The position numbers and the translations under genes are program-made. 64,000 nucleotides of DNA from positions 110,007 to 174,006 of the IMG/VR virus record IMGVR_UViG_3300028886_000029. The stretch is one strand, 5' to 3'. This DNA is from a virus (lineage: Duplodnaviria > Heunggongvirae > Uroviricota > Caudoviricetes). The notes beneath the pieces were generated by a model. The model worked only from the letters and a program-made list of their open reading frames with translations, did no database searches and was not told the DNA's origin. Below are positions 3,301 to 39,077 of this stretch, piece by piece (position 1 is the stretch's first letter; each line of letters begins with the position of its first letter).

Positions 3301-4811
3301 TGGACATAATTCGCGTCAGTGACAACATTGTCAATTGTTTTTCTTGTGGCCGTAAGCGGAAGATTCTCACCATCTGTCGCTGTGGCGGCACCTGCCAAAG
3401 TCTCAACATAGGTTATGCTATTTGTGTCGTTTTGTGTCGGTGTGCCATTAGTGACATCAATCTTATGTTTCGCATGGTCAGTTGTGACCGTAAGTTCCAC
3501 AGCACCATCAGTAACTGTTTGGGCTGTCCCATTCAATGTGATACCAGTGACAACTGTTCCGATATTGGCGACCTTATTGGTTTTGGCGACAGGTGAGCCG
3601 TTCATGGTCACACCTGTTAACATATCCGTATATGCGCTTGCGCCTGATGAGGCGTTATTCCTTATTGTCTCAAGGTCAGATATAGCGTCTTGTTTTCCGT
3701 TCCATGTGCTCTTTTCTGTTGCGGTGACATGAATATCAATGTCACTTGTATGTGCCGCAAGTGTGTCATTGATTGATTTTGTGCTTGCGCTCAAATCAGT
3801 GATTTTGCCATTGATGACAAGTTCTTTTCCATCAATTTCGGTTTTGGTGTAATAATTTGTCTCAACAGCACCGCTTAAGGCTTTAAGGTCGTTTTCAATC
3901 GCCACAGTACTTGCGCTTAAATCCTCAACACTACCACTCAATGTGTTAAGATTGGACTCAATTGTCTCCGTGGCACTGCTTAAAGATTCTATTTTAGTCT
4001 CAATTTCACCACTAAGGGTATTAATCTCAGTTTTGGTGTAATATAAACTTGGGTCGAAAAAGTCTGTTAGTGGAATACTGACATCTTGTTTTCCTGAGTC
4101 TGTATTGAAATCAATAACCAAAGATTTTACGCCCCCATTGTCCACAATGGCAACCCCATCAACCATTCCGTCCTTAATGAAATCAGTGGCATCAATAGTG
4201 TCAATAACCTCACCTAACTTGTTGTAGAAACAAATTGTCTTGGCACTTTCAACATACTCAGCGTCACCAAACAGATTTTGGTTAATGTTATTCTCAACGG
4301 CTATTGTGGCACCGCTTAACTCATCAACCTTTGTCTGCATGGCTGTGGTAACAGCGTCATTAAACCCACTAAGACCTGTTATGTCATTTATTGTCACGGC
4401 AGTTGTTCCTGTGACATGGCCGAAACCATCAACACTCACTTTATCAAAACCATCTGAAAGTCCGCTTACTGTTTTATGCTTAACACTTAAAGTTGTGCCG
4501 CTATTTTGGTCATCCTTACCTGTCAAAGTCACCGTCACTGCCTCATCACCTTCCACAACACTAATCAAATTGTCAACAACATCACCGATAACGCTATATA
4601 CACTTGATATTTTGTTATTGATGGCGTTTTCGGTGATAAATGTGGCCAAGGTTCCTGATGTCGGAGCGTTCTCATTTGTCTCAACATATAATTTAGCATC
4701 AGTTGTGTTGGTGTGAACAACACCAATCTCACCAAGAGACAATTGACTTACTGGCATTTTATCATCAGCACTGTGTAGGTTTATGACCTGTTTCCTATTT
4801 TTTTCTGCCAT
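372..4811 (-). CDS. Long repetitive tail-fibre/spike-like protein (1479 aa) with internally duplicated modules and coiled-coil repeats
   Basis: N-terminal LSLGEIGV motif, as in fibre attachment domains; three IDATxFIKDGMV...DPSxYY modules; 21-aa TLSGSVVELSASTVTIESNLN repeats; repeated AxSLNDLN/AAFNxLN coiled-coil segments. Confidence 0.65.
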   Translation of the reverse strand: MAEKNRKQVINLHSADDKMPVSQLSLGEIGVVHTNTTDAKLYVETNENAPTSGTLATFITENAINNKISSVYSVIGDVVDNLISVVEGDEAVTVTLTGKDDQNSGTTLSVKHKTVSGLSDGFDKVSVDGFGHVTGTTAVTINDITGLSGFNDAVTTAMQTKVDELSGATIAVENNINQNLFGDAEYVESAKTICFYNKLGEVIDTIDATDFIKDGMVDGVAIVDNGGVKSLVIDFNTDSGKQDVSIPLTDFFDPSLYYTKTEINTLSGEIETKIESLSSATETIESNLNTLSGSVEDLSASTVAIENDLKALSGAVETNYYTKTEIDGKELVINGKITDLSASTKSINDTLAAHTSDIDIHVTATEKSTWNGKQDAISDLETIRNNASSGASAYTDMLTGVTMNGSPVAKTNKVANIGTVVTGITLNGTAQTVTDGAVELTVTTDHAKHKIDVTNGTPTQNDTNSITYVETLAGAATATDGENLPLTATRKTIDNVVTDANYVHTDNNYTTDEKTKLGTIEASAQTNVIETVKVNGTTLTVTDKAVDVTVPTKTSDLTNDSDFVSDASYVHTDANYTVAEKEKLAGIAEGAEVNVNADWNATSGDAQILNKPTNVSVFTNDAGYITDNNNYFDGAVYDSTSKRINFKHGDNTIAYVDATNFIKDGMVDSVTVDTASGGTHSGETCLIITFNEDAGAKEDIYIPLSDIFDPSNYYTKTEVDAISGQLNTKIETLSGSVVELSASTVTIESNLNTLSGSVVELSGVTQTIETNLNTLSGSVESLSSATQTIETNLNTLSGSVEDLSASTVAIESNLEALSGSVVELSASTVTIESNLNTLSGSVIELSASTVAIESGLTELSGSVIENYYTKEKISEKELVVAESLNDLNNRIKEISAKTSNDYYTKSEIDTMANDYLSKEEMSSKEEIISESLNDLNDRIIELSGQTVEVDLSNYYTKSEVDNKDDELYEEIRNIDLSDYYTKSESDATFLSISSYTEDEMAISAAFNYLNDRTNTLSAATDDIYDKIDILSGKTVDLSEYYTKSEVNAISGTLETEITAHTSDATVHVTTAEKEAWNGKQNNISDLETIRNNASSGASAYESMLTGITVNGTPATVTNKVAAISADTNVIETVKVNGTALTVTDKAVDITVPSVEPYFDGAEYNSTDKKIYFKHGATIITSATIDATNFIKDGMVSNVEISGGNLVITFNTDSQKESISIPLTSIFDPSNYYTTGQTYSKTEVDAISGQLNTKIETLSGSVVDLSASTVVVKNDLAALSGVVETDYYDKDDIDGLLGDFVPVSAYVKDEKVIAAAFNEINTRVNELSGNSSTSTDAITALQSSVNNNTADIVDLTDDLSNLSASTMAMETAVGNAITAITMNGTAQTKTNNAVDLGTVLTPSDIITSEAALSGVSTTGSVVDATVVNNILANLIERTEYEDDLYVVAKAFNDLNDRLNAIESRLSSLENDVNVFQGGNY
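2225..2620 (-). repeat. Imperfect 63-bp tandem repeats encoding the 21-aa LSGSVVELSASTVTIESNLNT unit
   Basis: Recurring units such as acactaccacttaatgtgttaag and gtgcttgcacttaactcaac at 63-nt spacing, about six copies. Confidence 0.85.
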
Positions 4812-9155: not shown

Positions 9156-11663
9156 TTAATCAGGTATTTTGTGTGGTTGTACTATTTTCTTAGATGTTAA
9201 CTGAGGAAAATTCTCACTTCCACCCGTAACTAAAGTAAAAGCATCAGGCAATCTAACTGTTAGATATGTAGTTTCACCCCCACTTTCAGTTGAGACATTT
9301 ATTATTTGACCTGCCCAATTACCATCTTGATAACAATTATCACAAGATTTACCAACACCATCTGATAACCCCACATTGGTTACACCCAAACCAAATTCAT
9401 CGGTTTTACCGGTAACATAAATAGGATTTGGCCAGTTATCAAGTACTTCATTTTCTTCGCCAAGATTATTTTTATATTTCACACGAAATTTTGCATTAAT
9501 TATTTCATACATCCAAATAACACCAGGTGTTGCACCTGTACCATCAAACACATATGGAATCCTAATACCAAAACTTTTTTCATCTTCTACATGGACACCG
9601 ACACCGGTTGTGCCAGTGTCAATTTTTGGATACACAATCTCAGTTATTATTGAATTATCCTTGAATGTATATGTCTTTGTGTCATCTGTACATTCAGGAT
9701 GTGAGAATGTCACCGTACCCAAGTCAATATTTTGCCCCTGTTTCTTGCTTGTAATGACATACCTATGGGTGTAATTTGTTGTTGGTGTACCTGTCACAAC
9801 ACCAATGTTCGCACTACTACTGTTTACAAATGTAGGGTCAACATTTGTTGTTTTGGTTTCCCTGCTTTTCTCAACACCTTCTTGTTTAAGAACCCATTCA
9901 CCGGATGTTAACTTAACATATTTGTCACAATACACCACCTCATCATATTTCTTTTGTGATTTGATGTCAACAGTAAACGCCGTGTTACCGGTGGTAAATG
10001 TCGTACCTGTTGTTGAAGGTGATATAGTCCACACACATTGACTATTCTCAGTTTTTGTCTCACAATTCCTATCTTCAGTCTCAGTCGTTTCTTGGTTAGC
10101 TTCTTGAGTGAACGTGAGTTTTGTCTTGCCCCCGTCAAAACCAACACTACTCATATCAGATGTAAACGCACTACCCATAAAGGTAAATGAATATCTAGTT
10201 ATTTCACAGACAGTCTGTTCGTTACCAAGTATGGTTCCCCTATTTGTCGCACCAACACAAAAATCGGTGTTACTGAATGTGCCACCATTTGTGGTGGTTG
10301 CGGTCATCTTTAAGTCAGAGAAATTATCAATTGTGTCGTCCTCAACACCATTTTTTTTATATATGATTTTTAAACCATAACCACAAGATTTTTCTTCCCG
10401 TGCGGATGCCCTACCGTTTGCCAAGAAATCATAATCAATATATTTTAACACAGCGGAAACAAACTCATATGTATCACCATCTGGTTCCAAATTAAATGTA
10501 ATGCAGTTTTTACCATCTACAATAACAGTACTTCCACTTTGTTCAATATAACCCATTTTAGTCGCATGCCAGTCAAGTTTTTTACCCACACGAAAATAAT
10601 TATCAAGACTTTCAAAACATTGTTGCGTACCACCGGTGTAGTTTACCCAACGCGATAGAGAGTCTGTAGGTACAGATAAACTAACCCTCACATCTGTTGG
10701 TGTACTATCACAAACACATATTTCTCCGTAGTCACACACCGGAACATAAATTTTAGTTGTTCCACTATAACCATTATAACCAGCGGTAATTGTTACTGTT
10801 TTACCTGCCGTAGTTTTATTATAGTACTTGACATTACCCTTATTCACTGTAGCCACATTTGTGTTATTGCTACTCCAAGTCGCCGAATTAGTGACATCTG
10901 TTGAGGCTGATTGTACCAACGCACCGTTTTCATATGTGTTATATGTGGCTGTAATTTGCACACTGTCTTCGCATGTGTCAGCAGACATGTTAGTTATACT
11001 GTTAATCACATCATGTGTAATTGTTGGCTCAGGTGTAGGTGCGTCACATTGGGGAACAGACACTGTAAATTGTGTACTTGTCACACCGTTATATTTCGCC
11101 GTTATCTTCGCCGTACCCTGACCCTTCGGTGTTATTTTACCTCTACTGACAGTGGCAACACTTGTGTTGTTGCTACTCCAAGTCGCTGAATTGGTGACAT
11201 TTGTTGAGGCTGATTGTACCAACGCACCGTCAGCATATGTGTTATATGTGGCGGTAAGACTAATGTCTGTCGGTGAGTAAACACCGTCATTACAAGCGAA
11301 TGCAGTAGTACCTGTGTTACCTAAGACAACATCATAGGTATATGTCGGTTCAGGTGTGGGTGGTCTGTACGCCTCTTGTGTCCATGTTATACCCGTAATC
11401 TTATATTTCTTTGTACCATCAGCAGACAGCACGGTATTTGAGTCAAATGATATTTTATCGGTATCAATTTCCTCACCGACAGGTGTTGCCCAATCGGTTT
11501 GTTTCTCAGTGTTTTTCGTGTGTGAGATTGTGTAACTGACACTATTCTCACCATGTGTGGGATAATACAATGTCACAGGTATCGCCACATTCTCACTATA
11601 TTCGTGATACAATGTGGTTATTTTCCATTTTCCATTTTCCCCATCTTGTGTCAATGTCGGCAT
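9156..11663 (-). CDS. Ig-like (Big_2-type) repeat protein, array member 1
   Basis: Shared N-terminal module; two near-identical ATWSSNNTxVATV Ig-like units. Confidence 0.75.
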   Translation of the reverse strand: MPTLTQDGENGKWKITTLYHEYSENVAIPVTLYYPTHGENSVSYTISHTKNTEKQTDWATPVGEEIDTDKISFDSNTVLSADGTKKYKITGITWTQEAYRPPTPEPTYTYDVVLGNTGTTAFACNDGVYSPTDISLTATYNTYADGALVQSASTNVTNSATWSSNNTSVATVSRGKITPKGQGTAKITAKYNGVTSTQFTVSVPQCDAPTPEPTITHDVINSITNMSADTCEDSVQITATYNTYENGALVQSASTDVTNSATWSSNNTNVATVNKGNVKYYNKTTAGKTVTITAGYNGYSGTTKIYVPVCDYGEICVCDSTPTDVRVSLSVPTDSLSRWVNYTGGTQQCFESLDNYFRVGKKLDWHATKMGYIEQSGSTVIVDGKNCITFNLEPDGDTYEFVSAVLKYIDYDFLANGRASAREEKSCGYGLKIIYKKNGVEDDTIDNFSDLKMTATTTNGGTFSNTDFCVGATNRGTILGNEQTVCEITRYSFTFMGSAFTSDMSSVGFDGGKTKLTFTQEANQETTETEDRNCETKTENSQCVWTISPSTTGTTFTTGNTAFTVDIKSQKKYDEVVYCDKYVKLTSGEWVLKQEGVEKSRETKTTNVDPTFVNSSSANIGVVTGTPTTNYTHRYVITSKKQGQNIDLGTVTFSHPECTDDTKTYTFKDNSIITEIVYPKIDTGTTGVGVHVEDEKSFGIRIPYVFDGTGATPGVIWMYEIINAKFRVKYKNNLGEENEVLDNWPNPIYVTGKTDEFGLGVTNVGLSDGVGKSCDNCYQDGNWAGQIINVSTESGGETTYLTVRLPDAFTLVTGGSENFPQLTSKKIVQPHKIPD

Positions 11664-11665
11664 AA

Positions 11666-11806
11666 TTATTCTGTTTTTTCCTTTTTATTTTCATTTTTCT
11701 GTTCAATATTTCCGGTGGCAGTCAAATTAATTACATTACTGTTTTTCATTTCCTTTATAAGAAAATAAACCAAAACCAATAGTAGACCAGATATTAATAT
11801 TTCCAT
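11666..11806 (-). CDS. 46-aa membrane micro-protein missing from the ORF track (MEILISGLLLVLVYFLIKEMKNSNVINLTATGNIEQKNENKKEKTE)
   Basis: Translated by hand: ATG at 11806, TAA at 11666-11668. It fills the gap between two array genes and stops 2 nt before the next ATG. Hydrophobic N-terminus. Confidence 0.75.
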   Translation of the reverse strand: MEILISGLLLVLVYFLIKEMKNSNVINLTATGNIEQKNENKKEKTE

Positions 11807-11833
11807 TTTAATTGTATTGTTCTTTATTAATTA

Positions 11834-14326
11834 TTAATGCACATCAGGGTCAGGTTCTATATCCATGTCATCATCACCGTTCCAATTTGTTACTTCATCA
11901 TTAATCAATACATTCATACTACGACAACTTATAGTCATTTTGTAATAACTTGTTGGACCTGTTGGCTCTACATTATCTATAGTAAAGACTCTATATTTAT
12001 ATCCTCTTTGTGGAACTAATATTGGGTCAAAAGAAACATTATTTTTAACAAATGTCTGATACCCACCCTCTGTAGTTCCAGTAACATTAACAACTATATC
12101 ACTAAATGTTTGACTAACAATATCCTTATTTGTAAAACCAACACCAAATCTTATTCGTTGTGGTGCTTCAGGACTTAAGACCCATGTGTCCGTATCATCC
12201 TTCCTTTCGCCACCAATTCCAAGAATTTTTGCTGTGTTAGGCGTTGAGGGTGCTTCATATGCTCTTTGTGTTATATTGATAACGGCATATGTTGAAGCAT
12301 CTGCATCATCATATAACCTTATTGTCGCATATCTTTCTGCGCCGGTATTAACACCGGTATAATATATCAATACCCTACCATTAGTTATTTCCACAGTTCT
12401 TATAAAACTATTTTCCTCTAATACTTTCCAAGCCAAGTTACCCCTTAAATCAGTCGCAGTCACAGAAGGCGCACCATTAGTGGTATCAATTCTGTCATCA
12501 CCAAATCCAGAATCAAGTGATGTGGGGTTAACCGTGATTTTACCTGCACCGACATATTTTACGGTAACCGCAACCGTGTTAGATACAACACTGTCTTTAT
12601 AACTGTTTGTTGCTTTTAAATAAAGTGTTTGTCCTGTTGCGTCAGTTCCAACTTTCAAATGTCTGACATCGACCAAAGTAGGGTCTTCATCTTCTTCAAG
12701 GTGAGCGATATCACTACTTACCGCACCTCCGTTCGCAGTTGTAAGTGACCAAACAGCACCATGTTGTGTGGTAAATGTTGGCGTATACGACAAATCAAAC
12801 TGTTGTGTGTTGTTCTGATTTTGAATTGTCAACGGACCTGTTGGTTGAATTTCCATTGATTCACAAGGTATATCATCTGACGAAGGTTCTTTTTGTGTAA
12901 ATGTTGTGTCTCTGTTAATGGTATTACCATATATATCCTGTCCACTAATTCGAATATCACCTGTTCTAAAAGTAGTACCTTGAGCATTTGTTGTGGCTGT
13001 TATGTACAAAACAGGGGAAGCACCTGTCACAATAGATAAACCTGTAATCCAATCATCATGACTTGTATTAGTAGCAGTCAATGATGTCTGAACCATATCT
13101 ATACATTCGAAGTTTTGGCTTGCTTCGGTTTTCATACTTGCAACCATTATACTACCAACAATGATGATTTGTCCCTTCTTAGTATTTTTACATACAATAA
13201 ACGATGTGGTACCAGTGTTACCATCATATGAACCTTTTACGGTTACACCAACATCTTCTGAAACATTTTTATTATCATAATCAATTCTACCTTTAGTTGT
13301 TGTTGATGCTGTTGCAACATTGGAACCGTTGGTGATTGTCCATGTTGTTTCGTTTGTCACATTTTCTTGTTTTGTCACAACACCATTTACTTTTGTTATG
13401 TACCAAGCACCAACATTAACATAACCCGTACTTGTCTCCGTAGTACCTGTTGTCTCTCCAGAAACAACAAATTCATAAGTCTCTTCATCCCCACCACTTT
13501 CACTCATCTCAAATTTCTCAAGGGTGTTTCCTGTTATCTTGACACTATCATTAATTGTGTCATATCCGTCCTTGGTTATTGTGTATGATACAGTCTGATT
13601 TTTAACATACTGACCTTCAGTCACCAATGTTCCACCTGTGTAAGTATAAGTCTTGTCACCACTTACCTCAATACTTGCGCCAGTGACATTACCACTAAAT
13701 GACAAGGTATATGTCTGAACAGGCTCATCACTCTTTTTAGGAACAGTCACATCCACATTATCAGTATAACCGTTATATGTTGCTGTAATCTTGATTGTGG
13801 TATCAGTTGAACCGGTGTTATTAAATGTCACATTACCATTATTGATTGATGATATAAGGGCTGTTTTATTCACAGACCAAGTACAGTTCACATTGGAAGT
13901 GACATTCTCAGTGTTTACCAATGTGCCGTTGTTAAATGTCTTGTACCATGCGCCGAAAGTCAAACTGTCATTATATGACGCAGCCGCATAACTTGCGCCT
14001 GAGACAACAAGACTATAAGTAAATGAGTCTGGTTTCTCATACGGTTTGACCGTACCCCAATTTATTTTGTTGATTTTATAAATTGTTGAGCCATATGTCG
14101 CCGTACCTGATGACAAACTGATTTGGTTTGTGTTAATCGCCGTACCAAGAGCGGTTTTCCATTCAGTCGCAAGCGATTTTTTTGTGTTACTTATATTGGT
14201 TTCCACTGATTTACCACCATAAGTCAATTTAATCGGTATGCTGAGATTGTACACATTTTCAGTCTCATGTGTACATAAGTCAACAATTCTCCATGTTCCT
14301 TCTGATGTTTGATTTACACCTGCCAT
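11834..14326 (-). CDS. Ig-like/BACON-like multidomain protein, array member 2
   Basis: Shared N-terminal module; WSVNK/WTIT Ig units; BACON-like DDWITGLSI...RTGDIRI...FTQ and AERYATIRL...INITQ. Confidence 0.75.
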   Translation of the reverse strand: MAGVNQTSEGTWRIVDLCTHETENVYNLSIPIKLTYGGKSVETNISNTKKSLATEWKTALGTAINTNQISLSSGTATYGSTIYKINKINWGTVKPYEKPDSFTYSLVVSGASYAAASYNDSLTFGAWYKTFNNGTLVNTENVTSNVNCTWSVNKTALISSINNGNVTFNNTGSTDTTIKITATYNGYTDNVDVTVPKKSDEPVQTYTLSFSGNVTGASIEVSGDKTYTYTGGTLVTEGQYVKNQTVSYTITKDGYDTINDSVKITGNTLEKFEMSESGGDEETYEFVVSGETTGTTETSTGYVNVGAWYITKVNGVVTKQENVTNETTWTITNGSNVATASTTTKGRIDYDNKNVSEDVGVTVKGSYDGNTGTTSFIVCKNTKKGQIIIVGSIMVASMKTEASQNFECIDMVQTSLTATNTSHDDWITGLSIVTGASPVLYITATTNAQGTTFRTGDIRISGQDIYGNTINRDTTFTQKEPSSDDIPCESMEIQPTGPLTIQNQNNTQQFDLSYTPTFTTQHGAVWSLTTANGGAVSSDIAHLEEDEDPTLVDVRHLKVGTDATGQTLYLKATNSYKDSVVSNTVAVTVKYVGAGKITVNPTSLDSGFGDDRIDTTNGAPSVTATDLRGNLAWKVLEENSFIRTVEITNGRVLIYYTGVNTGAERYATIRLYDDADASTYAVINITQRAYEAPSTPNTAKILGIGGERKDDTDTWVLSPEAPQRIRFGVGFTNKDIVSQTFSDIVVNVTGTTEGGYQTFVKNNVSFDPILVPQRGYKYRVFTIDNVEPTGPTSYYKMTISCRSMNVLINDEVTNWNGDDDMDIEPDPDVH

Positions 14327-14380
14327 ATATATGTTATTTTTTACACTAATTTATTAATAAATATCATTTTATTTGGTTTT

Positions 14381-15547
14381 CTACTCACTATTTTGTGTGA
14401 GGTCAGCATAACCAGGTATTGTTTTTTCCGATGGTTGCGGTTTCCCATATATGTTAAAATATTGGCTGTCACTGCCATACTTGTTATGTGTCGCAGTAAC
14501 TTTAACTGTCGTGTTACTTGTTGAGTCGTTTTTATAATTTACAGACCCCTTTGTCGTGGTACTTGCTGTCGCCACATTTGTCTTGTCCACAGACCAATCG
14601 CATTGTGTTGTTATGTCATCACCTTTAACACCATCGGTTAAAAGATAGGCGTGATATTCCATTGTACCTGCACTATGACCTGCGTTATAAGGGTCTGTGG
14701 TCGTACCTGTCGGCTCAACACTAATTGCATATGTTTTTTCTGCTAATGTAAATGTTATAATATTTTCTTTGTCTTGTGTCACATTACCGTTTATGGTTTT
14801 GGTACCTGACTTAGTGTTATACCCCTCACCATTCGATGCTGACCATTTAATAACTGTGCTTTTTAAATATTTCCCAATATATTGCTTACTTCCGGTTGTC
14901 GTGTACGTGGTACTGTCACCTTCAATTTTAAATGTTGAGCCTGAAGGTTTGCCATTAACATATAAAAGACCATATTCAGGTAAACCTTTCACTTTTAACG
15001 CCGCATTACCAACCACTTTGTTATATGTGGCACTGACTGTTATATTCAAATTGTCAGCAGTTTCATTTTTGTAGTCAACACCACCATTACCATACAAAGT
15101 AGCATATCTGTCATCACTTAATGACCACTCCGCTAAATCTGTCACATTTAATCTTTCAACCTCAATACCATTATTTTCTGTCACATAAAAAGCACCATAT
15201 TCTGTTGAACCAGATGTCTTGTTATCATCAACAACTGATGGCTCAACGACAACTTTATACACAATGTCATTCTTTTTAGGGTGTAACTCCCAATTAACAG
15301 AACTGATTGTGTATTTTTTATTTTGCTCTTCCATAACAACCGGTTCATACTCAACCGTTATCAATTTTTCATCCAAAGAGACACCTGGTTTTGTCGCCCA
15401 TAATGTTTCCACCTCTTGCGGTGTCTTTGTCAAATTCACACTAACAGGATTTTTTCCGTCATATTTGAATGTGGCAGGTATTACCACATCATCAGGTGAA
15501 TTGTGGTACAATTTAATTTTCCAAGTTTTATTTGTTACATCTGCCAT
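14381..15547 (-). CDS. Ig-like protein, array member 3
   Basis: Shared N-terminal module; AEWSLSD and CDWSVDK Ig units; ends with KTIPGYADLTQ. Confidence 0.75.
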   Translation of the reverse strand: MADVTNKTWKIKLYHNSPDDVVIPATFKYDGKNPVSVNLTKTPQEVETLWATKPGVSLDEKLITVEYEPVVMEEQNKKYTISSVNWELHPKKNDIVYKVVVEPSVVDDNKTSGSTEYGAFYVTENNGIEVERLNVTDLAEWSLSDDRYATLYGNGGVDYKNETADNLNITVSATYNKVVGNAALKVKGLPEYGLLYVNGKPSGSTFKIEGDSTTYTTTGSKQYIGKYLKSTVIKWSASNGEGYNTKSGTKTINGNVTQDKENIITFTLAEKTYAISVEPTGTTTDPYNAGHSAGTMEYHAYLLTDGVKGDDITTQCDWSVDKTNVATASTTTKGSVNYKNDSTSNTTVKVTATHNKYGSDSQYFNIYGKPQPSEKTIPGYADLTQNSE

Positions 15548-15552
15548 AATTT

Positions 15553-18114
15553 TTAACCTTCCTCATTTACATATAATATATCCAAAAAATCGTTTGTCAC
15601 TGTTGATTGTATCGCTATGAATATGTTCCTATCACTTCCACTTCTGTTTGGGGCAATAGTAACTGTCATGTTTTCGATTGACTCAGAATGTTCATCGACA
15701 TCGCATGATACCCAGTCAAGGTCAACAATTTCCCTATTATAGTTATAAGCAAGTGTCCTGAATTTCCACGCGGTATTTGAATCAACACTGAGGTTTATTT
15801 TACCGCCGTTTTTGGACAGCAAGGTATCACTGTGTGTGTAAATGAATTTACCATATTCAAAAACTTGACTATCTGTACTTGTGTCAACACCAGGAACAAT
15901 CAATATAACACCATCCTTATCGGAACCAGATTTCCCCTCAATCAATATTGGTACATCAAATATGGTTGTGTTGTTGTAGTAGACAACATATTCACCATAT
16001 TGGTTGACCTTACCTTCTTTAATAATTCCGGTTCCAAAATCATTATATGACCAATCACAACTTGTTACTTTCATCGCACTCCATTGTCCATCACCGTACC
16101 CATGAGTTAACCACGCGTAACAACGAGGTGTCGCCCCATTTGGTTTTAATGCGGTCTTTTGGTCAGTCACAACCATAAAAGCACTTCCATACACATATTT
16201 ACCCACTTTTTTCGCTATAGTAAAAGACTCTGTGGCCGACAAACCATTGTATGTGGCGGTAATTGTAATTGTTTCAGCGGCTTTGGCGTTTGTATTAGTA
16301 AAGTTAAGTCTTGCTCTTAACCAATCATATGTCTTTCCTTTAAACATGGGACTATCTGAAGTCACGACAGCATCTCTTGACACATTTTTCTGATTAATCA
16401 ACACACCATTAACATATGTCTTTTCAAAAATAGCCGCGTTTATGGAACCATCATCAATTTCACTGTTTTTATCAGACAAAATTATTTGCAATTCCCTTTT
16501 GGTCTCAACCGCTTCATTATCTGGAACCAAAGTGACTTGTATGCCGTTCTCACCTGCGCTGCTTATCTTATATGTATTTGTTATCGTGACATAACCTTTT
16601 TTAATAACAGTATAACTTATGGTACTGCCCACTTGGTATTTTCCCTCTATTTTCGCTACACCGTTGTTGTCAAACTTTTGCATCGTGAAACCTGCGGTGG
16701 TGGCTAACGGCACTCTTACAACACCATATGGGTATTCCTCACTGTCAACCCTTTCAGTAGGTGTCACATAAAATATCAAATTCGCAACCGATGTATTTTT
16801 AGGACAAACACATAGTCTTGTTGTTTTCTCATACAAATAATCACCATATTTATATTTTGCGATGACCGAAAATGATTGTACAGAATCACTACTGTTGCTA
16901 TACTCAAGTTTACCGTTTTCGCTTATCTTGGCGATGTTTGAGTTATCAACACTCCATTGCACATCATTAGTCACATCGTTTTCATGTATATCACCCAAAG
17001 AAAAATAAGCCTTAAAATCCTGCTCACCTGTTGTCGGTAAAACCATATTGATTTTATCCTCTGTTGTTGGTGTTATTACAAATGTCCCACCTGCGTTCTC
17101 ACTTGCGGCCACCCTGAATGTATATGACTCTTCCGCATGTATGCCTTTAAAACTTGCCCTTATTGTCACTGTTTGTTCAGTACCTTTAGTGTTTAACCAA
17201 GTGACAGACGCTTCTGTCGCAAATGGATATATCTTAACTATTGGATTATCACATGACCATTCAACTATATCAGACACATTACCTGGGTCATCGGCAGGAC
17301 CGTAATCAGGGTCTTTTTCCCAATATGAAAGTGCCCCATAACCTTTATAAAACACAGCCTTTATTGTAATTATCCCAATATCGTTGTTATACAAATATGG
17401 TTCAGTATAACCTTCTTTAACCTTAGGTGTCAACACCAATTTGTGTGTTTTAATTTCCTCCTGTTTTTCCTTTCCTTTCTGTATTGTGATACTTTTTGTT
17501 TCGGTTATATTGTTATAAGTACAAGAAATTGTGATAACTCTTGCCGTGTCACCGGTATTACTGTACAACAAAACATTGTCATCGAAATAAGCGACAGTCT
17601 CATCACTTGATGTCCATATCCCTTCTTTTATCTCATTGGTATTCGTCACTTCCCCATTTACCTTGACAATATACTTGGCAACAGGTGAATATTTTCCCTG
17701 TCCAAACAAATTGGGTATGTCCTCTATTTCTATTGTGCATTCAGCGACACCTGCGGCAAGACCGTCCACATACTTAACATCTTGTTCGGTTTCAGGCTCT
17801 GTGGTTCCTGTAACTGACGGATTATAACCTTTCATATTGAAACTAATTTTATTAATCACATATTTTGTTTTACCATCACTCGAATATGCTGGTTCTGCCG
17901 AATATTTTATATCTTCAAGATTTATGTTCTCATTTAGTTCTGTTACCCAAGGTGTCTCAATTATCCTGCTATAAGAATCTTTCGAAACACCGGTGACAGT
18001 AAAACTACTGTCTTTGTAAGTAAATGTAATATCGAACTTCACATCATCAGTCAAACCTGTGACAAAGAGATTTGACATAACCCATTTACCGTTTTTATTA
18101 ACAATATCCGCCAT
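15553..18114 (-). CDS. Ig-like multidomain protein with a C-terminal BACON-like domain, array member 4
   Basis: Shared N-terminal module; WTSSDETVA and WSVDNSNIA Ig units; C-terminal SVDSNTAW...DWVS...PNRSGSDR BACON pattern. Confidence 0.75.
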   Translation of the reverse strand: MADIVNKNGKWVMSNLFVTGLTDDVKFDITFTYKDSSFTVTGVSKDSYSRIIETPWVTELNENINLEDIKYSAEPAYSSDGKTKYVINKISFNMKGYNPSVTGTTEPETEQDVKYVDGLAAGVAECTIEIEDIPNLFGQGKYSPVAKYIVKVNGEVTNTNEIKEGIWTSSDETVAYFDDNVLLYSNTGDTARVITISCTYNNITETKSITIQKGKEKQEEIKTHKLVLTPKVKEGYTEPYLYNNDIGIITIKAVFYKGYGALSYWEKDPDYGPADDPGNVSDIVEWSCDNPIVKIYPFATEASVTWLNTKGTEQTVTIRASFKGIHAEESYTFRVAASENAGGTFVITPTTEDKINMVLPTTGEQDFKAYFSLGDIHENDVTNDVQWSVDNSNIAKISENGKLEYSNSSDSVQSFSVIAKYKYGDYLYEKTTRLCVCPKNTSVANLIFYVTPTERVDSEEYPYGVVRVPLATTAGFTMQKFDNNGVAKIEGKYQVGSTISYTVIKKGYVTITNTYKISSAGENGIQVTLVPDNEAVETKRELQIILSDKNSEIDDGSINAAIFEKTYVNGVLINQKNVSRDAVVTSDSPMFKGKTYDWLRARLNFTNTNAKAAETITITATYNGLSATESFTIAKKVGKYVYGSAFMVVTDQKTALKPNGATPRCYAWLTHGYGDGQWSAMKVTSCDWSYNDFGTGIIKEGKVNQYGEYVVYYNNTTIFDVPILIEGKSGSDKDGVILIVPGVDTSTDSQVFEYGKFIYTHSDTLLSKNGGKINLSVDSNTAWKFRTLAYNYNREIVDLDWVSCDVDEHSESIENMTVTIAPNRSGSDRNIFIAIQSTVTNDFLDILYVNEEG

Positions 18115-18134
18115 ATAATCAATTTGTTTTTACA

Positions 18135-18626
18135 TTATTCGTTTTGTGTCGCGATGCCAATCACAGGGACACCAATGTTAGTTGCCGTATCTTTGTTCTC
18201 AATATCACCAACAATGTCAACTTTTTTGGTCACAGTGCCTTCTTCTTCAATAACCTCTTGTTCCACATCAGACACCACATCAGTCTTAACAACCTCAGTT
18301 ACAGTGCTTTCACCGCTTGGGTCATTCTCATCATCATATACGCTAACATCATCCCAAGTAACCGCAGTGACAAGATATTTTCTTGTTCCATCATCTGAAA
18401 AAACAGGCGTTGATGACCAAGTGATTTTGGTTGTGTCAATCTCAACACCAATCTCAGTTACCCATTTGGTTTGTATACTGGTATTGTTTTTTATCGTGGC
18501 AATAGCGGAAACAACACTACCACCGTTGTACCATAATTTTAACGGTAATGATACATTATCGTCAAGGTCATGTGTTAACTTCGTTATTGTCCAAGTGCCA
18601 TTGGCATTCTGTTGCAATGCTGCCAT
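18135..18626 (-). CDS. Short array member 5: N-terminal module plus an acidic tail carrying strand motifs
   Basis: 163 aa; shared module followed by VKTDVVSDVEQ, KKVDIVGDIEN and IGVPVIGIATQ. Confidence 0.75.
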   Translation of the reverse strand: MAALQQNANGTWTITKLTHDLDDNVSLPLKLWYNGGSVVSAIATIKNNTSIQTKWVTEIGVEIDTTKITWSSTPVFSDDGTRKYLVTAVTWDDVSVYDDENDPSGESTVTEVVKTDVVSDVEQEVIEEEGTVTKKVDIVGDIENKDTATNIGVPVIGIATQNE

Positions 18627-18662
18627 TATCTTTTTTAAAATAAATAGTTTTATTTTTTGTCT

Positions 18663-20276
18663 TTATGCGTCTTGATGTACTTTATAGACCATATTGTCAG
18701 GAAAAGTTATTTTTGCATCTCTTGCTTTTCCTGTTGTGTTTTTTTGCGCTTTAATTGGTACATAATACCTCAACGTGTAACCGTTAAACCATGGTTCACC
18801 ACTAGGACGCATTGGCACAACACCATCAATTTTTCCTGTCATCTCATATTCCATCAGTTGGTCACTTGTCCATGTGTTCGTGCTTATCACTTGAAACTTG
18901 GATGTTTCTACAGTTAACCATGATGAGTCCACTTGCACTTGACTGAGCACCGTTCTACCACAACCTGCGCCACATATAAATTCAATACCACCTAAACCGG
19001 TACTATAATTATTAGTAAAATAAAATGTACCGTTGGCATCACAAACACTTTTAGTGTAATTATGGAAACTTTTGATATAATCCGCCGCTTCTTGCACTAT
19101 TTTTACAGCAACACCCTTATCATTACTAAAATATCCTCGTACCCAAACAGTTTTTTCAAGTTTGTTTCCATAATTAGTTGCGAAAGTCACGGTCAATATA
19201 TTACCATCTTGTGTTTTCTTCGCATCTTCTATTCCCGTCACACCGTAGCCTGTATGATGACCGTTAAGGTCAATATACTCAACATGAAAAGTTCTTGTTG
19301 ACGATTCCGCAGGTATTGTCACTGTTGTTGGTGTTACAGCGGTAACAATTGTACCGTCTGGTGATACCGTTACCTTACAAGTGTCAAAGTATTTTTCATC
19401 ATATGTACATGCCGAAATGGTCACCGTACCCAAGTCATTATTGGCAGGAACCTCAATCCAACCCCTGTTGGGGGCTTTATAGGATTTAACTTTTGCAATT
19501 CTACTATTAGATGATTTCCATATGACGTTTTTGTTTGTTGCGTTTGATGGTGTAATTGTGGCATACACAAATTCAGCCGTATTACGGTAAGTATTCAAAT
19601 CCACTGTATGTTTATCCAATGTGATGCCTGTCGGCTCAATTACCACATCACCACTGCCATCACCACTACTGTCCTCACTTGTACCATTGGGGTCACCTTT
19701 CACAGTTATCTCCACAAAACCAGACACATTGTTATATATTGCACTAATCGCAACCGTTTTATTGTACTTGGTTTTGTTTACACCTGTCACTTTACCTTTA
19801 CTGACTGTGGCAATCGCACTGTTAGCACTGTTCCACACAATGTTATTCACATTCAGGTCTTCTTCCTTAACAACCTTGTCACCGTCATACTCATAATATT
19901 TAGCTGTACAGTTAGTTGTACCGGTGCATGTTATCTCATTGTTGTTTGCGGTAACAACAATTTTTTTGACTATATCAGTCTCACCATAAGGCACAACTGA
20001 TGTCCACTTTACATCATCAACTGAATATATCGCATTACCATATTTTACGCTTTCAGAAGACAAAGAAATATATTTTGTGTCAATCAATGTCCCAAGAGGT
20101 GTTATCCAATCAGGCGCATCAATACTTTTTTCCTCTGTTGTGGCGGTTACCGTATGTGATTTTCCCTCATATGTGAAAGTAGTTGGTATTTGCAAATTAG
20201 ATGGTACAGAACTACCTGTATCAATTTTAAAATATATTGTCCAACTACCATCGTTATTTTGTTTTGCGCTTGCCAT
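18663..20276 (-). CDS. Big_2 Ig-like/BACON-like protein, array member 6
   Basis: Shared N-terminal module; WNSANSAIATV and PSNATNKNVIWKSSNSRIA (classic Big_2); C-terminal NTTGKARDAKITF. Confidence 0.8.
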   Translation of the reverse strand: MASAKQNNDGSWTIYFKIDTGSSVPSNLQIPTTFTYEGKSHTVTATTEEKSIDAPDWITPLGTLIDTKYISLSSESVKYGNAIYSVDDVKWTSVVPYGETDIVKKIVVTANNNEITCTGTTNCTAKYYEYDGDKVVKEEDLNVNNIVWNSANSAIATVSKGKVTGVNKTKYNKTVAISAIYNNVSGFVEITVKGDPNGTSEDSSGDGSGDVVIEPTGITLDKHTVDLNTYRNTAEFVYATITPSNATNKNVIWKSSNSRIAKVKSYKAPNRGWIEVPANNDLGTVTISACTYDEKYFDTCKVTVSPDGTIVTAVTPTTVTIPAESSTRTFHVEYIDLNGHHTGYGVTGIEDAKKTQDGNILTVTFATNYGNKLEKTVWVRGYFSNDKGVAVKIVQEAADYIKSFHNYTKSVCDANGTFYFTNNYSTGLGGIEFICGAGCGRTVLSQVQVDSSWLTVETSKFQVISTNTWTSDQLMEYEMTGKIDGVVPMRPSGEPWFNGYTLRYYVPIKAQKNTTGKARDAKITFPDNMVYKVHQDA

Positions 20277-20288
20277 ATTTCTTAAAAA

Positions 20289-23200
20289 TTACTCATTATT
20301 TTGTTTTAATCTACCTGCCAAGTTGACACTCACATAATCCAATATAGGACTGTTTTGCCTGATATTACCTCTAACAGCCGCTTTAACCTCCGTAACAGTT
20401 GCAATGTTGGATTGTACCAAACCTGCGTAACCAGGAATAACAACCTCACTTGAAATCTGTTCCAAATCAGCGTAACCAGGGATTGACATCTCTGTTATAT
20501 CCTGCACAACAGTACCTGACGCTGGAATACCTATCGGTTCACTGAAGTCATTACAGAATCCCCATTCAAAAATTGTCGTTGACGGTAACAGTTGTTTCAT
20601 GTATTCAACGACAACTTTTCTTATATAATCCTGCCATTCTCTTTTGAAATCAGGCTCATCAACAGGCGAATCAACAAACTCAATCCTCATATTTTTCAAA
20701 TTCACAAGTGAATATGACGCAGGTTCCATATAATTGTTACCACCCTCAGGATTATATAAAATATTCATATCAACACTTGTCGCACTACCACATATACCCT
20801 CAGTCACACTTTTGTCAATCATATTCTCAACCTCAGGTAAAGTGTTTTTACAATCATAAGTGTTACCGTCAGTTTGTTCTATTACAGTCAAATCAGACTT
20901 ATACCTTGGTCTGAAATAATCAACTTTCCTATTGTCGGTATAACCGCTTTTAATATTAAAATCATATGTTGTTATCGCACTTTCAACATCAAGTGTTGAA
21001 AACCTGCTGAAGTTATTGTTTTTAATATTGTATTCAAATATGTTGCTTAATACCCTAACATACTCAGCACCGTCATCATATGCTGTTTTCGCTATATGTG
21101 GGTTATTACCATTTGTTTTCTCCTTAATTGCTTCCTGATATAATACATTTGTACCGTCTACCGAAGAAGCATTTAAAATGTCTTTCAAATAAATGTATCT
21201 CCAACCACAGCCACCAAACAAACCCACAGCATTTGTTTTGAAAATGTTGTCAAGGACAAAATAATGTGAATATACTGTATTCCCATCCTCAGTCATCTCC
21301 GCTGTTTCGGGGTTATTGCCACTGTTAATGATGTAAAACCCATCCATAACCTCACGCAAGGCTGATATGTCATTGACATAGCAAATATCACCGACAGAGA
21401 CCTCATTAGGTAAAAAACCTATCATCTCATAGATGTCAGAAGCGAATTTTAACCTGTTTTTCGTCTCATCATAGAAATTATCACCTGCAATAAGACCACT
21501 TGGGATATATTTTTTTACATCATATCCTTGTATCTGTAACTCAGAAACATCTATAATTGGTTTTTTACCCCAACCACCTTTCATTTGGAAATAAAGGCCA
21601 TTGTCATATTCCTTTTTGGGGTCATACCATGGTATTACATATCTTTTAATTGTGTCATCTTCATAGTTTCGAACAACAACCGGTTTACATGCTATACCAT
21701 AGTAATCATCAACACTCTCATTTATTGGATAATTGTCTTTCCTACCGTTAATAACCTCAACATCAATAGCGTCAGGATATTTACAGTTAAATCTATCAGT
21801 CGCTTCCAAACCCCTTAGTTCCGCAATATCCATTTTACAGACATCACCGCCCTGCGCCACACCAATGTGTTCCTTAATCCTATATTCTGTCGGTTTCAAA
21901 CCAAGTAAACCAAACATGGTCTCAAGCCCCTCCCTTGTTCCTTTAAGGGAATTGATATAATGTGAGTTGATTTTAAGGTTCCTCATGAACTGGGTGTTAC
22001 CGTCAACCTCATTGTAACCTGTCGAAAAACCACTGTACAACGCCTCAGTAACAACACTTGTCTTGGCCGTAGGATTAGGCAAAATAGCGTCAAAACCACT
22101 TAACTCAACCACATCGGTCAAGTGATAGTCAGGTAAATTGTTCTTTTGGTCATATGACACATTGTTACTGAATTTGATATTATCAATATACCTTTTAAGT
22201 CCATCATATTGTCTTGCGTATAACTGTAACACAGCCTCAATTCTGGAAGAATCAATATTTGACAAGTCCTCTATATCATCACCACTATGTCTAAAAAAAG
22301 TCCAATCAAGGTTCTTTATCGCCTCATGGGTCATCATCCTCCAAATATTGTTGGAATCAAACTCATCATGATATTGAGCTAAAGAGATTAGCCTGAACAA
22401 GTATGAGTTAAACGCCGTTGTCGTAATCTGTGGATTCCAATTGTTTCGTGATGGCCATGTGTAAGGCTCCATTGTGTACTCATAACCGTTATCGGTCTCA
22501 TAGGGTGTCTCAAAAACCGCTTTGTATATCGGTTTGCTTTGTCTGTTCAACAATATTGACTCAAATTCATCAATCGTTTCAAAATACTCAATGACAATCG
22601 CTTCGTTAGGTCTGATACTTGTGCCAGCGATTTTGTTCTCCACCTCAATCTCACCTGCGTTAGCGTTAACCCTAACCACATTGTTTGACTTCAACATTGT
22701 CATTCTACTCTCAACAGGTTCCTGTTGCAACAAATGTCCCTTTCCTGCTATATTGATATCAATAACATCATATTCTTGTTTAAGATGCCCCTTCGCAGGA
22801 ATACCGACATCCTGAACATTATCTTGCACCAAATGGCCAATCGCACCAATATCAATCTTGGCAGGGTCTTGCACCAAATGTCCTGTCGCATCAATATCAA
22901 TGCTTTGTATAACCTCATAAATATATATTTTTTCGCCGTTCTGAATATATATACACACTTTAATGCCACCTATCTCAGCACAGCCAAGAATACCGTCATT
23001 ACAACCGTCATAATCTGGATTCCGATGAAAATTAGACTTTGTAAGGTTTTCCTCAATAACCTCACCATCTTTCATTTTAACATAATCTTGGATTGATAAG
23101 GTAAGATATCTGTACGGATTCTCTATGTTTTCCTCATTAATGAAGTCAGACTCAAAATTAATCCCAAACTCGTTATGTGCTATCCTAAAATCACTGACAG

Positions 23201-23696
23201 GTCTTTTCTCACCGTCAAGCATCACATATTCAACATAATTTCCGTTTCTGTCCAATGGTTCGAAAGGCTCATTACCAAAATAAATCTCAGCAGGAAACCA
23301 TTTTATGACATGGTTAACCGTGGCATGTACCATCTCTATCGCCGAACCATAGTATGCGAAATCCCTAATGGAATTATAGTTCGGCTTAATTCTGATTTTA
23401 CTCTCATCTGAAATTGGTGCTTCGTTAAGGTCTTCAAGTGTCCAAACCTCACTACCATCAGGTGTTTTTAACCATGTGTTTCTATTATATTTTCTTTTCA
23501 AATCAATATCAGTTCTTGTACTGAATTTGAAATTTGAGTCGGAATAAAGAATTTCCTGGCCATCACCAAACAATGAGTCCAAAGGCGTTATTGTCATGAT
23601 GTCGTTCTCAAAAATATCGCCCTTGTCAGTTGTCTGATGTTTTTTTCTTAAAAAAGTGTAATCAGATTTTACTTTATATTTGTTGTTGTTTACCAT
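20289..23696 (-). CDS. Large structural (baseplate-associated) protein with two clusters of 11-aa repeats
   Basis: 1135 aa, inside the structural operon; four GHLxQ repeats internally and about five related repeats at the C-terminus. Confidence 0.6.
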   Translation of the reverse strand: MVNNNKYKVKSDYTFLRKKHQTTDKGDIFENDIMTITPLDSLFGDGQEILYSDSNFKFSTRTDIDLKRKYNRNTWLKTPDGSEVWTLEDLNEAPISDESKIRIKPNYNSIRDFAYYGSAIEMVHATVNHVIKWFPAEIYFGNEPFEPLDRNGNYVEYVMLDGEKRPVSDFRIAHNEFGINFESDFINEENIENPYRYLTLSIQDYVKMKDGEVIEENLTKSNFHRNPDYDGCNDGILGCAEIGGIKVCIYIQNGEKIYIYEVIQSIDIDATGHLVQDPAKIDIGAIGHLVQDNVQDVGIPAKGHLKQEYDVIDINIAGKGHLLQQEPVESRMTMLKSNNVVRVNANAGEIEVENKIAGTSIRPNEAIVIEYFETIDEFESILLNRQSKPIYKAVFETPYETDNGYEYTMEPYTWPSRNNWNPQITTTAFNSYLFRLISLAQYHDEFDSNNIWRMMTHEAIKNLDWTFFRHSGDDIEDLSNIDSSRIEAVLQLYARQYDGLKRYIDNIKFSNNVSYDQKNNLPDYHLTDVVELSGFDAILPNPTAKTSVVTEALYSGFSTGYNEVDGNTQFMRNLKINSHYINSLKGTREGLETMFGLLGLKPTEYRIKEHIGVAQGGDVCKMDIAELRGLEATDRFNCKYPDAIDVEVINGRKDNYPINESVDDYYGIACKPVVVRNYEDDTIKRYVIPWYDPKKEYDNGLYFQMKGGWGKKPIIDVSELQIQGYDVKKYIPSGLIAGDNFYDETKNRLKFASDIYEMIGFLPNEVSVGDICYVNDISALREVMDGFYIINSGNNPETAEMTEDGNTVYSHYFVLDNIFKTNAVGLFGGCGWRYIYLKDILNASSVDGTNVLYQEAIKEKTNGNNPHIAKTAYDDGAEYVRVLSNIFEYNIKNNNFSRFSTLDVESAITTYDFNIKSGYTDNRKVDYFRPRYKSDLTVIEQTDGNTYDCKNTLPEVENMIDKSVTEGICGSATSVDMNILYNPEGGNNYMEPASYSLVNLKNMRIEFVDSPVDEPDFKREWQDYIRKVVVEYMKQLLPSTTIFEWGFCNDFSEPIGIPASGTVVQDITEMSIPGYADLEQISSEVVIPGYAGLVQSNIATVTEVKAAVRGNIRQNSPILDYVSVNLAGRLKQNNE

Positions 23697-38684: not shown

Positions 38685-39077
38685 TTATATGTTAATTTTT
38701 ACTCCAACACTTGTTGATTCAAGTTTATTTCCTTTCTTGATACCATATTTCACAATAATAATCATACTATGCTCATCATTCTCATCTTTACTGAAACTGA
38801 TGTCATTAAAAAGCACACCATTAACGTATTTGCCAATGTCCTCAGTCAATGATTTTTTAAGTGACTCAAATGTCATGTCGTCACTCGGTGAAAATATGTA
38901 CTTTATCAAATCAGTTCCGAAATCAGGATTTCTTAATCTCTGCCCTTTGGGTGTGAACAACACATGCAAAACCTCTGACTTAACCCTATCAGTCATGTTC
39001 TTGTCCAAATCCAAAAACACCTCCTCATCATTATTGGATGAGAACGGATATGTAATACCAAATTTTTTCGTCAACAT
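38685..39077 (-). CDS. Baseplate wedge subunit, gp25-like
   Basis: GITYPF...VLFTPKGQRLRNPDFGTDL signature, adjacent to the gp6-like gene. Confidence 0.9.
   Translation of the reverse strand: MLTKKFGITYPFSSNNDEEVFLDLDKNMTDRVKSEVLHVLFTPKGQRLRNPDFGTDLIKYIFSPSDDMTFESLKKSLTEDIGKYVNGVLFNDISFSKDENDEHSMIIIVKYGIKKGNKLESTSVGVKINI

Follow-up and report, generated by a model that had tools for sequence, protein, structure and literature searches.

How a large phage might fasten many separate adhesins to a single baseplate protein is the question raised by a 64-kb stretch of DNA, hereafter the window, which covers bases 110007-174006 of the 363,317-bp genome of an uncultivated jumbo phage. Here an 11-residue motif recurs in a protein of 1135 amino acids (aa) that we call the hub, in two of six adjacent fibre-like paralogues and in a 46-aa membrane peptide, and the six paralogues share an N-terminal module. 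The anatomy of these genes, its conservation in relatives and the co-occurrence of motif and module are established; from them we infer binding between the two, its geometry, its stoichiometry and any code that pairs motif subtypes with particular paralogues. That the motif region is where the module attaches, in some geometry, is probable on comparative grounds. The fuller reading that we favour, a modular, non-covalent and branchable fibre-attachment system with the motif as tag and the module as docking part, stands in our judgment at an even balance between right and wrong, and so does the proposal that one tag docks one module. Every gene in this account of hub and fibres lies on the minus strand, and the features on which it turns are the following, with two paralogues called adaptors after the role proposed for them below.

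20289..23696, minus strand: hub, 1135 aa, the final conserved gene of a baseplate operon, with a core of ~890 aa and two motif arrays
22725..22901, minus strand: internal array of the hub, four copies at residues 266, 281, 297 and 314 (span 266-324)
20301..20534, minus strand: C-terminal array of the hub, five copies at residues 1055, 1070, 1085, 1104 and 1122 (span 1055-1132)
18663..20276, minus strand: fibre paralogue F, 537 aa, N-terminal module at 19977-20276, then Big_2 immunoglobulin-like (Ig-like) domains
18135..18626, minus strand: adaptor E, 163 aa, N-terminal module at 18327-18626, tail with three motifs at 18144-18290, ending in QNE
15553..18114, minus strand: fibre paralogue D, 853 aa, N-terminal module at 17815-18114
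14381..15547, minus strand: adaptor C, 388 aa, N-terminal module at 15248-15547, terminal motif KTIPGYADLTQ at 14393-14425, then NSE
11834..14326, minus strand: fibre paralogue B, 830 aa, N-terminal module at 14027-14326
11666..11806, minus strand: micro-protein, 46 aa, hydrophobic helix, motif INLTATGNIEQ at 11699-11731, Lys/Glu-rich tail
9156..11663, minus strand: fibre paralogue A, 835 aa, N-terminal module at 11364-11663, DUF3869 domain

The motif has the form h-x-h-x-x-x-G-x-h-x-Q (h, hydrophobic) and occurs nine times in the hub, at a spacing of 15-19 residues. All copies have hydrophobic or small residues at positions 1, 3, 5 and 9, and the hydrophobics alternate along the motif as in a beta-strand, a feature expected of a donor peptide. 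The internal array follows the consensus I-x-I-x-A/G-x-G-H-L-x-Q, and the hub ends three residues (NNE) past the last copy of the C-terminal array. Adaptor C (388 aa) reads KTIPGYADLTQNSE at its C-terminus (14393-14425). A preliminary description of this DNA, made from its letters and open reading frames (ORFs), had listed motif peptides in the hub, in the genes at 14381..15547 and 18135..18626 and in the 46-aa ORF; all are present where it placed them, and the tail of the 18135..18626 product, for which it had claimed two or three copies, contains three.

Chance is excluded as the source of the hub motifs. Across the full 363-kb genome, with its 2065 six-frame ORFs, the strict pattern [IVM]x[IVA]xxxGx[IVL]xQ has seven matches, all in the hub, compared with a mean of 0.014 and a maximum of 2 in 20,000 shuffles of the hub; a relaxed pattern matches the hub nine times, against a shuffle mean of 0.083 and a maximum of 3. 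Genome-wide, the relaxed motif gives 24 matches versus 18 in shuffles, and a lone relaxed match is therefore not significant, so that the single copies in adaptor C and the micro-protein need other support. This is supplied by a shared peptide, by recurrence in homologous short proteins and by conservation of the micro-ORF. The shared peptide, IPGYADL, is common to the hub (IPGYADLEQ) and the tail of adaptor C (IPGYADLTQ), and because 5 of the 9 codons differ synonymously, it appears to have been kept by selection rather than by recent gene conversion. As no DNA tandem repeat was found in the hub with Tandem Repeats Finder, recent duplication was likewise rejected as the origin of the peptide repeats in this phage. 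Between phages the motif residues vary (IDIEASGVLEQ, IGIKAKGDLSQ, VFVDLDGILEQ), and the pattern and the 15-19-residue spacing are kept. In the terminal arrays and motifs of the hub, of its homologues P0006, P0007 and P0013, and of the adaptors, the stop codon follows 1-4 residues after the last copy. We dropped a reading of the motif as a protease site cut after the Gln, given that terminal copies have just these 1-4 residues behind them and that no dedicated protease is suggested nearby.

More than 1000 hub homologues exist in metagenomes, although the protein has no match in Pfam, PHROGs, PDB sequences or 50,697 phage records searched with tblastn, and none in a features search of the ESM Atlas (best score 0.86). 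The hub alignment (A1) shows a widely conserved core of ~890 aa, at the end of which certain homologues stop exactly. Beyond it, C-termini are of three kinds: a short tail in most homologues, giving proteins of ~950 aa; a long covalent extension of BACON or Ig-like domains in some, giving 1150-1700 aa; and motif arrays, which among the best 120 matches occur only in four (P0001/P0005, P0006, P0007 and P0013). The internal array sits in an insert of ~95 residues (263-357; window ~22626-22910) that only P0001, P0006 and P0007 possess, and P0007 has an extra motif copy at a third site. Being clade-specific inserts at two or three sites, with varying residues, the arrays do not occupy aligned core positions. 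By this alignment they are add-on cassettes, which the conserved core has received in a loop and at its C-terminal end. After the internal arrays there is a similar 'return' segment, MTMLKSNNVVRVN in the window hub (22626-22724, residues ~325-357), NMLGMRLMGRNR in P0006 and FKALTLRTLNRE in P0007, and the third-site copy in P0007 is followed by NRMKLMGNFKNG; judging by these sequences, the inserted array cassette seems to have a defined closing element.

The distribution of the module matches that of the arrays. As the preliminary description had it, the six adjacent paralogues share an N-terminal module; it spans ~95 aa from residue 1, and the genome contains only these six. A profile search of 1.84 billion representatives returned only 101 clusters, in nearly all of which the module stands at the N-terminus of a protein of 500-1500 aa. 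We compared 79 IMG/VR and 43 metagenome loci of hub homologues with flanks of up to 10 kb, plus the P0007 and P0013 contigs. Apart from the window, only L001, L002 and L003/L101 contained the module, and together these are exactly the loci whose hub has at least two motifs: motif and module occur together in 4/4 motif-bearing hub lineages, and the module in none of the ~120 motif-less loci. Relatives that keep the motifs and lack the paralogues, a pattern that would have spoken against the original proposal, are thus absent among the motif-bearing hub loci compared. In G001, the 79-kb record behind L003, a hub with two motifs is accompanied by exactly two module genes. The nearest motif-less hubs (L092 and L093, 50% identity) carry a covalent C-terminal extension and form the last gene of their operon, with no module genes nearby. 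From these comparisons, it looks as if a covalent fibre was split into a tag-bearing hub and detachable fibres. Weak matches to the module family also include proteins with 3-8 tandem module-like domains (P0212, 1705 aa; P0158, 1503 aa; P0206, 1618 aa), of which P0212 has a hydrophobic stretch and then basic residues at its C-terminus, like cell-surface proteins; the module may descend from an ordinary repeated Ig-like domain.

Motif and module also meet on a second family of scaffolds, whose members carry one to four motif copies per protein and adjoin module-bearing proteins. In the scaffold of L138 (327 aa), a distinct N-terminal domain is followed by three motifs in tandem, then by a BACON domain and a last, terminal motif, and two module-bearing fibres come after this scaffold; in L086, paralogues of 979 and 953 aa with one motif each flank a module adaptor and a module fibre. 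When the L138 protein, the sole member of this family tested, was aligned to the hub with hhalign, only the motif region was aligned, with a probability of 0.4%. With no similarity to the hub detectable outside the motif, the L138 and L086 scaffolds appear to be an independent case of the pairing. A conserved helical protein of 159 aa closes the fibre array in this family (L086, 16185-16664; L138, 12293-12772) and could be an assembly factor.

The short module proteins and the micro-protein extend the same pattern. Among module proteins below 300 aa, 6/18 end in G-x-x-x-Q followed by 2-4 residues, compared with 0/69 longer members. L082 and L083 keep the succession of genes seen in the window (hub, F, adaptor E, D, adaptor C, B), and L084, L085 and L088 keep parts of it; in L082, the orthologue of adaptor E has 154 aa, and that of adaptor C has 285 aa and the C-terminus MTLTAHGDLTQKNT. 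The preliminary description had cast the third and fifth members of the array as branch adaptors, and the architecture of a module plus a terminal motif does recur in relatives, which is consistent with the role without demonstrating it. Motif subtypes co-vary within a phage: IPGYA is found in the hub and adaptor C of the window, and LTAHG in the hub and in the adaptor C orthologue (C') of the P0006-type phage. The micro-ORF recurs between B-type and A-type fibre genes in L089, where the product has 46 aa and differs from the window copy by one residue, and in L090, where a clearly diverged product of 50 aa keeps the hydrophobic helix and the motif (IDLSATGEMTQ). Its stop codon in the window lies 2 nucleotides ahead of the start of paralogue A. 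Assigning its motif to one hub subtype was given up; the best match in the window is the first internal copy, but several subtypes tie in L090.

To look at the module itself, we modelled the 163-aa adaptor E with AlphaFold2 and a 50-sequence alignment. Its module (residues 1-100) was predicted as a seven-strand beta-sandwich at a pLDDT (predicted local distance difference test) of ~96 with the peptide absent, and the motif tail at a pLDDT of ~50, undocked and without regular structure. In this model, the module is a confident stand-alone domain, and the unstructured, low-confidence tail would fit an exposed linear tag. The preliminary description had proposed that the motif binds or completes the module, which alone should then be predicted with an open groove. 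The first half of this is consistent with the co-occurrence described above; for the second, a module modelled complete without peptide does not indicate completion of an open Ig fold, and leaves docking along an edge strand unaffected. Fold searches with the module model (Foldseek against the PDB; VIA-align against 48,161 PDB representatives; BFVD; ESM Atlas) revealed no specific relative, and the matches were generic FN3/Ig-like only (best E-value 0.05, Z 5.4, template-modelling score 0.45). A complex prediction that paired the adaptor E module with residues 1046-1135 of the hub reached 0.06, where the mark was 0.32, and, run without controls, counts neither way. The first strand of the module reads A-x-L-x-Q-[NDT] (residues 2-7 in all six paralogues, for example window 18606-18623), with Gln6 conserved in 90% or more of the members. 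The motif ends in the similar G-x-L-x-Q-[NDE], and this likeness leaves room for a strand-exchange variant. P0140 and P0213 have an internal, duplicated module, and the residues preceding it match the relaxed motif.

In the reading that we favour, the covalent C-terminal extension that the hub core has in most relatives would have been replaced, in this clade, by tag arrays in one surface loop and at the C-terminus, and the strings of Ig-like and BACON domains are encoded as separate genes, each starting with the ~95-aa beta-sandwich module. The module would dock on a tag, most simply through edge-strand pairing. Since adaptors C and E combine a module at the N-terminus with one to three tags in the opposite tail, they would serve as branch adaptors. 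Fibres, adaptors and hub would then assemble into a hyperbranched appendage with many fibres, and the hub might carry up to nine adhesins. The 46-aa membrane peptide, with its one tag and apparent translational coupling to fibre gene A, may hold or chaperone a fibre before assembly. The hub core is common to many phages without the module, and taking the motif region as the attachment site is the most economical reading because the arrays are the sole clade-specific feature of the hub and because the pair recurs on an unrelated scaffold.

Several observations weigh against this reading. The module is modelled as a complete sandwich with the adaptor's own tail undocked, and contact between module and motif is a deduction from their co-occurrence. 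The hub lineages are interrelated and so count as few independent events, which leaves the co-occurrence resting on one hub clade and one second scaffold family. Motif number, which the preliminary description proposed to compare with paralogue number, equals the number of module genes in G001 (two and two), but the two are not one to one in the window, where 9 + 4 + 1 motifs stand against six module types. Lastly, the 15-19-residue spacing, alternating hydrophobics and fixed Gly resemble fibrous repeats such as the triple beta-spiral (PMC3150272).

This last point underlies the main rival explanation, which we consider unlikely: the arrays would be structural fibrous repeats, triple beta-spiral-like or a beta-hairpin solenoid, that fold together as short shafts with which the copies on the adaptors and micro-protein co-assemble, while the modules cap the end or attach elsewhere, not one per motif. 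The triple beta-spiral of the adenovirus fibre and reovirus sigma1 has hydrophobic residues at positions c, e, g, k and m of its consensus and Pro or Gly at j (PMC3150272). It shares with the motif arrays repeats of 15-20 residues, alternating hydrophobics and a conserved turn Gly or Pro, and hydrophobic or small residues at motif positions 1, 3, 5 and 9 bring the arrays near that consensus; in addition, copies are homogenised within a phage, and the order of N-terminal domain, three repeats and BACON domain in L138 looks like anchor, shaft and head. However, the Gly of the motif comes one position too early for that consensus, and an invariant Gln stands at position 11 instead of a hydrophobic residue. 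Known beta-spirals lead into a trimeric head, whereas the arrays here end the protein after 1-4 residues with no head domain; one array lies inside a loop of a globular core, so that the chain must return, and isolated single copies are found at C-termini, in a linker between domains and on the membrane micro-protein. The absence of regular structure in the AlphaFold2 tail points the same way, although a monomer model is weak evidence on this matter.

Strict donor-strand complementation is very improbable in our view. In chaperone-usher pilins, where it operates, the Ig-like fold is incomplete, without its last strand, and has an open groove; here, the module would be such a fold and the motif would give the missing strand, possibly displacing the module's first strand. 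The strand-like alternation of the motif is what a donor would show, the likeness of first strand and motif end would fit an exchange, and pilins are among the weak fold matches (Z 4.2-4.3), but these rank no better than dozens of FN3 domains, and the seven regular strands were predicted at high confidence without peptide and with the cis tail not inserted, in a model whose coordinates were not inspected for a groove. Also improbable, if slightly less so, is that the motifs serve as flexible spacers, or that some other activity acts on them, such as processing or modification by the neighbouring phage glycosylation genes, with the module attaching elsewhere and shared ancestry alone explaining the co-occurrence. 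That most co-occurring lineages are related would suit this explanation, as would the glycosyltransferase gene cluster present in the same window and the indirect nature of the case for motif-module binding. Against it, the pattern is conserved despite turnover of the residues, the motif appears beside module genes on a scaffold dissimilar to the hub outside the motif, the terminal motif is confined to short module proteins, and a hub core shared with many module-less phages makes the arrays the sole clade-specific candidate for an attachment site.

Returning to the attachment system that we favour, a bolder extension of it would make the hub a phage 'scaffoldin' with an address code. Roughly five motif subtypes (GHL, IG-I/V-P, IPGYA, VK..V and V.VNL) would each be read by a particular module paralogue, the order and copy number of tags would program which fibres are mounted, how many and where, the single-tag membrane peptide would act as an assembly placeholder or chaperone, and the joint might be a strand exchange with the first strand of the module. 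We offer this extension tentatively and think it doubtful as a whole.

The genomic setting places the hub in a baseplate operon, which begins with the two genes listed here.

38685-39077, minus strand: gp25-like baseplate wedge gene (PF04965, 30.3 bits versus a cut-off of 27.2), the operon head
36723-38681, minus strand: gp6/J-like baseplate wedge gene (phrog_219, E-value 2.9e-19), second in the operon

Five large proteins without annotation follow, then the hub and the six paralogues. Elsewhere in the window, a 1479-aa protein on the minus strand (372-4811) has weak matches to coiled-coil families (DUF7310, under the cut-off) and may be a separate long fibre of the phage; L089 has a 1502-aa gene with faint DUF7310/XkdV_N matches at a comparable place. 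Two related phages have TnpB/Cas12f-like (OrfB_IS605) genes a few kb downstream of their fibre arrays, at 17284-18411 in L002 and at 4917-6230 in L089.

If the proposed attachment system is real, the joint would be very simple, an 11-residue tag and a 95-residue module. The tag would be multivalent, could move between unrelated scaffolds and could be extended by means of adaptors. Such a system would account for the simultaneous mounting of many Ig/BACON adhesins by huge gut and rumen phages, and would provide a natural plug-and-play pair for protein display on phage particles. Comparative genomics also suggests an evolutionary route, from a covalent fibre extension to a tag array with detachable fibres.

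In the literature searched, we found no description of the motif-module pair, and the scaffoldins of cellulosomes and the chaperone-usher pili can serve as analogies only. A cellulosome scaffoldin is built of folded cohesin repeats of ~140 aa, and its cargo carries dockerin. The hub system would resemble it in having a multivalent backbone, adaptor scaffolds and one docking module common to all cargo; it differs in that the backbone repeats are 11-residue peptides and the cargo bears an FN3/Ig-like beta-sandwich, and there is no homology, with no Pfam matches to cohesin or dockerin in this system. Closer in setting are the branched tailspike complex of Ackermannviridae phage CBA120 (TSP1-4; PMC11414711) and the hyperbranched fibres of the jumbo phage PhiKp24 (10.1101/2022.03.15.484430), in which a large phage likewise carries many different fibres on its baseplate through a hierarchy of attachment proteins. 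Those systems employ trimeric tailspikes and folded attachment domains, unlike the Ig/BACON-like strings and proposed linear peptide sites described here.

Nearest of all among known systems are the anchor-branch receptor-binding complexes of the KP32, KP34, K1-5/SP6, G7C, Menlow and PhiK64-1 groups of Klebsiella phages and coliphages. In these, the secondary fibre starts with a short conserved peptide that docks on a T4gp10-like branching domain carried by the primary one (Latka et al. 2019, PMC6872550), a peptide-domain interaction that has been validated experimentally (Latka et al. 2026, PMC13352976). The docking peptide has 7-11 residues, and each branching domain offers one or two sites (PMC6872550; PMC13352976). 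A T4gp10-like domain was not detected in the hub by sequence comparison, with hhalign probabilities for A1 of 0.8% against T4 gp10 and 0.2% against gp9 and no Pfam or PHROG match. The fibres here also lack an N-terminal docking peptide, starting instead with the ~95-aa folded module, and the peptide is found on the scaffold and on the C-termini of the adaptors. What the systems have in common is the side-by-side arrangement of receptor-binding protein genes next to the gene of the anchor (here, six module genes directly downstream of the hub, in an order kept in L082 and L083); on our reading they would also share a single virion-attached protein, a short peptide paired with a docking domain, branching that multiplies the fibres, and exchangeable parts. 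Branched fibre systems set the number of hosts that a phage recognises and are now used to re-engineer host range. By analogy, the hub system would follow the same logic with its polarity reversed, the scaffold bearing up to nine copies of the peptide and each fibre a folded module, and with small dedicated adaptors and a membrane peptide that carry the tag as well.

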